Translations under genes and position numbers: made by a program
The notes under the pieces: model-generated
The model's database searches: none
What the model saw: the letters and a program-made list of their open reading frames with translations, nothing else
What the model was told of the DNA's origin: nothing
Assembly (NCBI GenBank): GCA_964016885.1
Contig: CAXHJY010000231.1
Coordinates: forward strand, 63,975-127,974
Source of the DNA: Eledone cirrhosa
Lineage: Eukaryota
Direction of reading: 5' to 3'
DNA length: 64,000 nucleotides
In this document: positions 16,427 to 17,607 of the stretch, piece after piece
Layout of the letters: every line of letters begins with the position of its first letter
How positions within the stretch are numbered: position 1 is the first letter of the stretch

Positions 16427-16760
16427 GTATATATATATATGTATATATATATGTATATATATATAGGTTGAAATAAAATGAAAACGAAATTTCATTTCTC
16501 ACTCTTAGTACGGCACTTACTTAAATGTAAGTATGTGTGTATACATACATATATGTATACAGACGTACAGTAGCATGCATATATATATATATATATATAT
16601 ATACATACAGGTACACATACATATATGCACGCATTTAGTTTAGCGGACGCTTATTATAAAGCCGCTTTGTTCGTTTGTAAACAAACTGAACACGCTGAAT
16701 TTTTATGTCGTACGGTGTTAAGGCAACCACGTCACCTTTTTGTTCAACACTGACACAGGA

Positions 16761-16803
16761 ACGATGTACTAGTTTCAAGCTTGTTAGCTATCATCAGCAC
16801 TGT
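16761..16803 (-). ncRNA. Minimal type I hammerhead ribozyme (family C, unit 1)
   Basis: Minus strand ACAGTG-CTGATGA-t-AGCT-aaca-AGCT-t-GAA-ACTAGT-A-CATCGT, with one mismatch in stem I. Confidence 0.75.
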
Positions 16804-16837
16804 ATACCCATCTGCTAGATAGTTGAACGTTCGAAAG

Positions 16838-16885
16838 TATATACTTTCCTTATGAAAATTAACGGGTGAGCAGCCTAATTTGCAT
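16838..16885 (-). promoter_or_regulatory. Putative snRNA-type promoter cassette (octamer, ATTTTCATA box, TATA)
   Basis: Minus strand ATGCAAAT-taggctgctcacccgtta-ATTTTCATA-aggaaag-TATATA upstream of the HHR. The same order and spacing occur at 50996-51043. Confidence 0.5.
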
Positions 16886-17039
16886 ATCGAGTGAGCTAAG
16901 TCGGTCAGGCATACCGAAAACGATAAGTTGAAATAAAATGAAAACGAAATTTCATTTCTCACTCTTAGTACGGCACTTACTTAAATGTAAGTATGTGTGT
17001 ATACGTACATACATATATGTATACAGACGTACAGTAGCA

Positions 17040-17099
<60 letters not shown>

Positions 17100-17251
17100 C
17101 AGGTACACATACATATATGCACGTATCAGTTTAGTGGACGCTTATTATAACGCCGCTTTGTTCGTTTGTAAACAAACTGAACAGCCTGAATTTTTATGCC
17201 GTACGGTGTTAAGGCAACCACGTCACCTTTTTGTTCGACACTGACACAGGA

Positions 17252-17294
17252 ACGATGTACTAGTTTCAAGCTTGTTAGCTATCATCAGCACCGT
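17252..17294 (-). ncRNA. Minimal type I hammerhead ribozyme (family C, unit 2)
   Basis: Minus strand ACGGTG-CTGATGA-t-AGCT-aaca-AGCT-t-GAA-ACTAGT-A-CATCGT: 6-bp stem I, palindromic stem III, GUA triplet. Confidence 0.85.
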
Positions 17295-17607
17295 ATACCC
17301 ATCTGCCAGATAGTTGAACGCTCGAAAGTATATACTTTCCTTATGTATATATATATATATGTATGAATGTATGTGTATATATATATATATCTATGTATGT
17401 ATAAGGAAAATGCTTCTCTGATGATCTTTGTTTTTCCATAAATATCCATCTGATATCTAATGTTTTGCAAAGTGAAACTGTACAGTAAGGGCCATTTGAA
17501 TAAGTAAATATTTATATTATATTTTTTAATTTTGATTAATTTTAATTTTAAATTAATTTTGATTTATTTTGAAAAATGGGTTGAATTTTACTTGTTCTGC
17601 TTATCTT

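Follow-up and report, generated by a model that had tools for sequence, protein, structure and literature searches.

A probable non-autonomous retrozyme of Eledone cirrhosa with a U6-like promoter cassette and Penelope-type insertion ends

Our analysis revealed that a tandem repeat with type I hammerhead motifs in Eledone cirrhosa belongs to a repeat family, hereafter family 1, that is very likely a non-LTR retrozyme inserted in the manner of Penelope-like elements (PLEs). As to how it propagates, we favor the reading, in our judgment a probable one, of a non-autonomous element with a U6-type promoter in each unit, whose RNA would cut itself, circularize and be copied into (TA)n by the RT/GIY-YIG enzyme of a PLE. 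The retrozyme class is already known, and newt and schistosome already provide hammerhead repeats that contain an snRNA-class or Pol III promoter. The Penelope-type anatomy was overlooked in the initial annotation of this DNA, and it points to the likely mobilizer. The window, by which we mean the whole 64,000-nt stretch analyzed (contig CAXHJY010000231.1, positions 63,975 to 127,974, forward strand), comes from a 3.0-Gb, (TA)n-rich assembly (GCA_964016885.1).

The coordinates of the features are collected in Table 1, where unit positions of family 1 run on the minus strand from q1 (16926) to q460 (16467). The unit is short, low in G+C, non-coding and without LTRs; it contains no ATG-started ORF of more than 70 aa, the longest having exactly that length, and no RT plus GIY-YIG ORF, the mark of an autonomous PLE. 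The initial annotation had described two head-to-tail units of about 490 nt with hammerheads 491 nt apart. The spacing was confirmed, as the CTGATGA cores lie on the minus strand at 17288 and 16797, exactly 491 nt apart, but only one unit is whole, the other being truncated at q73, and the unit measures about 460 nt, the larger spacing arising because the internal (TA)n tract is longer in the upstream copy. The octamer ATGCAAAT (16885), the AATTTTCATA box (16860-16851) and TATATA (16843) were all recovered on the minus strand, 5' of a hammerhead on the same strand as had been reported. The three occur together only 5' of the second hammerhead, that of the whole unit, and the upstream copy (17345-16927) retains TATATA and the hammerhead and lacks the octamer. 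The sole intact cassette thus sits between the two hammerheads, so its RNA would contain one hammerhead and then run on to the tail. With no intact promoter upstream of the first hammerhead, the locus is probably unable to supply the 491-nt piece from a promoter of its own; such a piece would need read-in from outside, and the locus is probably no source of the read-through monomers that had been proposed for it. Possible sources, in which an intact cassette is followed by at least two hammerheads, were found at 11 of the 50 loci mapped below.

The insertion (16467..17345) terminates at the long 3' end of the unit. Its 55-nt tail contains a hairpin and T4 runs at 16484-16481 and 16478-16475, and on its 5' side lies a second TA-rich tract (17346-17403). 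The separate insertion at 14643..15112 has neither promoter nor hammerhead. A tRNA-like, SINE-type sequence was noticed by eye between two TA tracts at 15985-16204 (+).

Table 1. Features of family 1 and its relatives in the window (positions of the 64,000-nt stretch).
Feature	Position	Strand	Remark
Whole 460-nt retrozyme unit, family 1	16467..16926	-	36% G+C
5'-truncated upstream copy (q73-460)	16927..17345	-	head to tail with the whole unit
Extended octamer ATGCAAATTAG	16875..16885	-	host U6, U6atac and RNase MRP genes have this motif at -76 to -78
AATTTTCATA box	16851..16860	-	common to family 2, altered in older subfamily, absent from families 3-5
TATA box (TATATA at 16843)	16836..16843	-	42 nt after octamer start; 46-48 in host U6-type genes
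Predicted transcription start, C/A step	16813..16813	-	inferred, 30 nt after TATA start as in host U6
Type I hammerhead, whole unit	16750..16818	-	core 16797-16791; predicted cut after 16767
Type I hammerhead, upstream copy	17241..17309	-	predicted cut after 17258; better-paired extended stem I
Internal (TA)n tract, variable length	16579..16607		longer in upstream copy (17043-17099)
Tail of about 55 nt	16467..16521	-	from short 3' end (q402-405, 16525-16522) to long 3' end (q460)
(TA)n-type microsatellite target, 3' side	16205..16466		
Separate family-1 insertion	14643..15112		two inverted 3' fragments, one short and one long end
Family-2 copy	50927..51354	+	inverted tail, octamer-box-TATA cassette (50996), hammerhead (51096-51126), short end

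The type I hammerhead motif is present in two consecutive tandem units here, and arrays exist at other loci. Each core is followed by GAAACTAGTA, which holds the palindrome ACTAGT and the GUA triplet, so that the palindromic stem III noted earlier is present in both hammerheads; the family-1 ribozyme is further characterized by a U.U at the base of stem II and a stem III of 1 bp with the palindromic ACUAGU. An Rfam scan of the window yielded no ribozyme match at the gathering score, the best match being HH9 (18.6 bits, E 0.23) in one copy only; other matches by E-value in the window were discarded as TA-repeat artefacts. The monomer fold is weak (z from -0.82 to +0.69), the hammerhead-constrained monomer fold lies 7.5 and 12.1 kcal/mol above the minimum, and free folding does not favor the hammerhead. 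Such an unfavorable monomer fold is expected because, according to the accessible part of the source, hammerheads of this class work as dimers (PMC4209133). The self-duplex of ACUAGU was computed at -4.8 kcal/mol, and free co-folding of the two ribozyme segments did not yield the dimeric active fold. A retrozyme of the axolotl whose stem II also has a U.U base is reported to cleave weakly alone and better as a dimer (PMC7229834), and in one study eight of nine Xenopus retrozyme dimers failed to cleave.

Conservation of the motif was evident across 63 loci, where the GAAA..GUA letters showed three departures in 630, with common variants at N7 and in loop II. Few parts of family 1 are as well conserved as the hammerhead core and the 3' strand of stem I. 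Families 2 and 3 form stems I and II from different letters and retain the palindromic stem III in most copies (ACUAGU, AUGCAU). Family-1 RNA is predicted to cut itself to unit length. A third hammerhead-like motif, of another family, adjoins the repeat at 17408-17497 (+), with CTGATGA at 17418, a long stem II with a U.U base and GAAACTGTACAGTA (palindromic stem III) at 17474-17487; a 74% copy of it exists in loci L182/L009, and free folding did not recover its hammerhead. In addition, the loose pattern CTGANGA..GAAA has 20 sites in the window, several of which recur at other loci; many are probably minimal hammerheads of PLEs and some are chance.

A 26-mer from the 3' part of the unit gave 15,807 exact matches against 0 for the control, so there are at least 15,807 family-1 3'-end copies; the best copies are 95-97% identical and are spread over many chromosomes. 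Fifty loci in the first 48 Mb of contig C1 were mapped, 44 picked by the 3' 26-mer and six by the cassette. The insertions lie in TA repeats, into which nearly all resolved 3' ends run; they are 5'-truncated at scattered points and build partial tandems, the longest with about ten units. At 36 of the 50 loci, two arms are arranged head to head. Two 3' ends recur: the short one falls at q399-409, and the long one lies at q460 or close to it, except in a subfamily, where it is at q445-455. All 27 scorable two-arm insertions combine one short with one long end; the other 9 of the 36, with one end interrupted or unresolved, were left out, and none of them has two like ends. Single-arm insertions, the window's included, mostly terminate at the long end. 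Copies are closer within loci (0.03) than between loci (0.07), and locus-private variants common to both arms were detected in eight cases, distributed over 5 of 26 loci. Later duplications were seen at loci L006 and L030.

PMC8557442 describes the PLE pattern as one of partial tandems with a truncated, inverted copy and a tail on one side. In vitro, the PLE of anole is reported to cleave both strands of AT-rich DNA, and its reverse transcription begins at two internal sites, which delimit the tail (PMC11167929). Since the insertion ends of family 1 follow the Penelope pattern, Penelope-like enzymes likely paste the element in, and the earlier suggestion of retrotransposition as tandem arrays gains support from these ends.

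The nature of the template was addressed with the 68 arms of the 50-locus map that have a clear 5' end. Only one arm begins within 5 nt of the cut site (1.7 expected), two begin near the predicted transcription start (1.7 expected), and 46 extend across one or more cut sites. Arms do not accumulate at the cut site, which together with the 46 crossing arms excludes the linear cut monomer as the usual template. Circles or uncut multimers could both give such arms. We lean toward a circular intermediate, as the absence of a pile-up at the start site favors circles. An unlikely alternative keeps the same element and a PLE but takes as template uncut multimeric read-through RNA from long arrays, with a hammerhead that acts late or rarely or limits the RNA, and with no need for a circle. 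It draws on the anole PLE, for which the sections of PMC11167929 at hand report uncut RNA as the main template in vitro, no reads ending at the cut site and normal insertion of ribozyme mutants, as well as on the unfavorable monomer fold and on arrays of at least 24 units in family 2 and about ten in family 1. Variants numbered 9 in all units, 187 in single units and 27 in subsets, 14 of the last from one old array, and locus L030 displays period-3 patterns, beyond what a monomer circle alone explains. However, linear transcripts should pile arms at the start site, which 2 of 68 do not amount to, the ribozyme core and the 3' strand of stem I are conserved better than most of the unit, and circles are on record for coral, mussel and axolotl retrozymes. 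Furthermore, stem I pairing extends 5-9 nt upstream of the predicted start in three families, a reach that would fit monomer or read-through RNA and that likewise favors circles.

Of the 44 loci picked by the 3' motif, promoter disregarded, 27 contain a whole unit; substitutions in these amounted to 13/1296 in the cassette (q42-89), 66/971 upstream of it (q6-41) and 179/3205 in the body, so that the cassette is conserved about six times as strongly as its flanks. Columns with a shared second letter were 2/48 in the cassette and 35/159 elsewhere (Fisher p 0.004). The octamer-box pattern of families 1 and 2 has 17,433 matches against 0 for the reversed control; conservation of the motifs over genomic copies, on which the initial annotation had made its proposal depend, is thus apparent. 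TATATA by itself is uninformative, with 7,274 occurrences per strand in the window. The ATTTTCATA box is variable, reading AATATG[C/T]ATA in an older subfamily, and the same two box changes make up about 40% of contig depth in run X1, whose contigs show, at differences of at least 10%, two in the box and none in octamer or TATA.

An octamer-TATA-CTGAHGA pattern that excludes the two main families has 2,111 matches (control 3), related copies that the pattern itself selects for octamer and TATA, which makes this part of the cassette test circular. Three further hammerhead families were recognized among 25 loci inspected of 30 fetched from this set. The other hammerhead families keep octamer and TATA with differing spacers, the octamer-to-TATA spacing being 42, 42, 43, 40 and 47 in families 1 to 5; family 5 has the host spacing (46-48). 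A pyrimidine/purine step at TATA+30 is found in six of seven element rows, and it reads T/G in family 5. Families 1 and 2 lack the distal TTACCTCCCT element that is situated near -260 in most host U1, U2 and U6 genes, a point against a U6-type reading, although neither MRP nor the 7SK candidate showed the element. We consider it likely that the cassette is a working promoter.

Host small-RNA genes from the same assembly (20 U6, 8 U6atac, 1 MRP, 12 U1, 10 U2, 1 RNase P and 1 7SK candidate) were scored for an extended octamer, ATG[CG][AT]AAT[TG]AG, upstream of TATA. The layout, with the octamer at -76 to -78 and TATA at -30, was found at 12 of 20 U6 loci (three distinct promoters), at one of eight U6atac loci and at the single RNase MRP gene, and it was found at none of the 12 U1, 10 U2, one RNase P and one 7SK candidate loci. 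Six of the U6 misses are array copies, and in those of them that were inspected an insertion has shifted the motif out of place; two more look like retrocopies, as do the seven U6atac misses, which have no distal element. U1, U2, RNase P and the 7SK candidate have instead a TCAGT motif upstream of TATA, near -58 in U1 and U2, and the element cassette, which is without it, groups with U6, U6atac and MRP. The claim of an internal snRNA-class promoter in a hammerhead tandem unit is therefore upheld by the match of the cassette to host small-RNA genes, and the proposed similarity to host snRNA promoters, which holds for U6 as well as for U6atac and MRP, does not extend to U1/U2 (0/22) or the 7SK candidate (0/1).

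Some further features of the host genes were recorded. The RNase P gene and the 7SK candidate (L262, L263; 1400-1500) have the TCAGT plus TATA layout and no U6-type octamer; being U1/U2-like, they indicate that some genes expected to be transcribed by Pol III fall outside the octamer layout. A TATA-like box lies at about -30 in the U1/U2 genes (L051-L062, L252-L261); to our knowledge, vertebrate Pol II snRNA genes have no TATA box. Some U6 array copies (C19; L037, L038) contain a SINE-like insertion of about 240 nt between promoter and gene, and promoterless U6atac/U6 copies that start at or near TA microsatellites (L094, L095, L100, L044) may be retrocopies.

U6, U6atac and MRP belong to the Pol III-transcribed class, and it is from this known class that we infer the polymerase of the element: transcription of the cassette by Pol III appears somewhat the better bet. 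The cassette may, quite improbably in our view, work as in newt satellite 2, as a Pol II promoter of the snRNA type or a plain octamer-plus-TATA one, for which T-runs are no barrier. The available portions of PMC2220036 and PMC6765202 report newt satellite II with an snRNA promoter and Pol II; the element spacing is 4-6 nt off that of host U6-type genes, host U1 and U2 likewise have TATA at -30, and T4/T5 runs lie between the hammerheads. Monomers need read-through of four T4 runs in family 1 and two T5 runs in family 2. Pol III would read through T4/T5 runs poorly. A T4-free body as a sign of Pol III was not significant (371 and 282 of 2000 shuffles). Against a Pol II promoter, the proximal extended octamer occurs in none of the 22 host U1/U2 loci, the elements are without the TCAGT motif that these have at about -58, and family 5 combines the exact U6 spacing with a T/G start. 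Given that the cassette matches U6, U6atac and MRP and not U1/U2, the closer model is the U6 type (Pol III), unlike newt satellite 2 (Pol II); the likeness to that satellite seen by the initial annotation survives in the hammerhead tandem and the snRNA-class promoter and fails in the Pol II-type layout.

For a partner element, 10,596 GIY-YIG candidates were obtained, of which 150 are listed. Among the matches listed, the family-1 or family-2 unit was a terminal repeat at none of 50 GIY-YIG loci (30 loci and 20 wider stretches), and no autonomous PLE sharing the family-1 unit was found in the window. Several of the 50 loci contain long frames with RT and GIY-YIG; no octamer precedes the hammerheads of the 50 loci, and family-1 matches in the partner-search stretches turned out to be separate insertions and not PLE termini. 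The terminal repeats of autonomous PLEs (L132, L135, L144) carry CCAAT-like boxes, GAGCCACTTTT..TATAAAA and no octamer, and L144 has short and long ends of its own about 35 nt apart. By eye, the family-1 tail loosely resembles the 3' region of L102-type PLEs (TTTCGTTT..CATTTT), a likeness that was not counted. The window also contains the 3' ends of two GIY-YIG PLE families at 35060-36105 (+) and 36700-38340 (+), the former with a hammerhead-like motif at 35850 and ending in GAAACGAAAT, with TA repeats beyond, similar to family 3 at its short end.

An RLE-type LINE ORF at 18480-21156 (-), with RT, zinc finger and KHNRPD motif, runs stop-free into a TA microsatellite, and its upstream frames are broken; being RLE-type and not a PLE, it was rejected as partner. 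Further LINE-type RT ORFs lie at 6532-9759 (-), 46496-48064 (-) and 39538-40395 (-), two of them with AP endonuclease. That an RLE-type LINE such as the one at 18480-21156 moves the repeat, or that the repeat is a satellite grown by unequal crossing-over with incidental promoter-like motifs, is very improbable: the ORF of this LINE does end in the neighboring microsatellite on the same strand, and some loci were later duplicated as mentioned above, but the LINE is about 1.1 kb away with microsatellite and another element between, a self-search of the window gave no 3' sequence common to LINE and repeat, the dispersed copies have inverted arms and two fixed 3' ends, conservation of the cassette far exceeds that of its flanks, and the short-plus-long ends of 27 out of 27 insertions largely refute both versions.

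The non-autonomous retrozyme that we prefer would work as follows. Each unit has in order the U6/U6atac/MRP-like cassette, the hammerhead motif and the tail. Pol III would start about 30 nt after the TATA, most of the RNA would stop at the T-runs of the tail and some would read through into the next unit. Two hammerheads would then pair through ACUAGU and cut, and the extended stem I would hold the ends of the monomer together for ligation. Such a monomer would carry the promoter of the next unit, and the upstream promoter would in this way travel with the element. The PLE enzyme would, as the insertion ends suggest, nick (TA)n and begin reverse transcription on each DNA strand at a fixed site of its own, 55 nt from the other, running for a variable length across cut sites and leaving partial tandems and inverted arms. 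The window copy may be the product of such an insertion, without an upstream promoter for the hammerhead-to-hammerhead piece. External Pol III promoters of the U6 class cannot normally move with the RNA that they drive. We raise tentatively, and with rather less conviction than the scheme for family 1, the idea of a superfamily of SINE-like elements on such promoters, carried along via hammerhead-cut circles and PLEs, with at least five diverged families in this genome.

Metazoan non-LTR retrozymes, as far as described in the accessible parts of PMC7229834 and bioRxiv 10.64898/2026.07.22.740005 (Li, Clavereau & Pollet), resemble family 1: they too are non-coding tandem repeats of low GC content whose units measure a few hundred bases and each hold a type I hammerhead, they range from monomers to multimers, and they coexist with PLEs, which both sources propose as the mobilizer. 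The promoter, the two fixed ends and the inverted arms of family 1 are not described in those parts. Li et al. propose a PLE origin on the basis of vertebrates, three insects and a coral, with no mollusc among their samples, and argue from co-occurrence and pLTR similarity; our argument rests on insertion ends, and no pLTR match was found. EN+ PLEs are likened to family 1 by what the portions at hand of PMC8557442, PMC11167929 and PMC4209133 describe, namely 5'-truncated partial tandems, an inverted 5'-truncated arm, a tail at one end, (TA)n targets, a hammerhead whose palindromic stem III is short and a promoter in the upstream repeat. Unlike PLEs, family 1 has no RT/GIY-YIG ORF, and its tail is about 55 nt as opposed to 30-40 nt in PLEs; the inspected autonomous PLE ends (CCAAT-like, GAGCCAC..TATAAAA, no octamer) also differ from it.

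Newt satellite 2, according to the accessible passages of PMC2220036, PMC6765202 and PMC7229834, is likewise a hammerhead tandem repeat with a 1-bp stem III, a palindromic tetraloop and an internal snRNA-class promoter. By the same partial description it is about 330 bp long and Pol II-driven, whereas family 1 has 460 bp and a TATA with the U6/U6atac/MRP layout. The schistosome SM-alpha element shares with family 1, in the available part of PMC6765202, a Pol III promoter at the 3' end of the cleaved monomer and the need for tandems of at least two units to propagate. In design, the promoter of SM-alpha is tRNA-like, in contrast to the upstream type 3 layout of family 1. We may add that the newt promoter consists of octamer and PSE and that the SM-alpha promoter, tRNA-like as it is, has boxes A and B. 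Family 1 thus appears to share its logic with newt satellite 2 and SM-alpha as these are described, which does not imply common descent. No report of a U6-type or type 3 promoter or of PLE-type double ends in retrozymes, or of cephalopod retrozymes, was found in the part of the literature covered.

In animal retrozymes, both the mobilizing enzyme and the mode of transcription are at issue, and family 1 offers directly testable answers at the sequence level, namely two fixed ends that match PLE priming sites and a host-U6-like promoter under stronger constraint than its flanks. If the promoter is indeed of Pol III type 3, the element would represent a SINE-like design distinct from those derived from tRNA, 7SL and 5S. 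In addition, a 460-nt non-coding template with known start sites may serve as a compact substrate for asking whether the RT of PLEs copies circles. Finally, work on expressing small RNAs in this animal group could take the compact arrangement of octamer and TATA in the host U6 genes as a lead.
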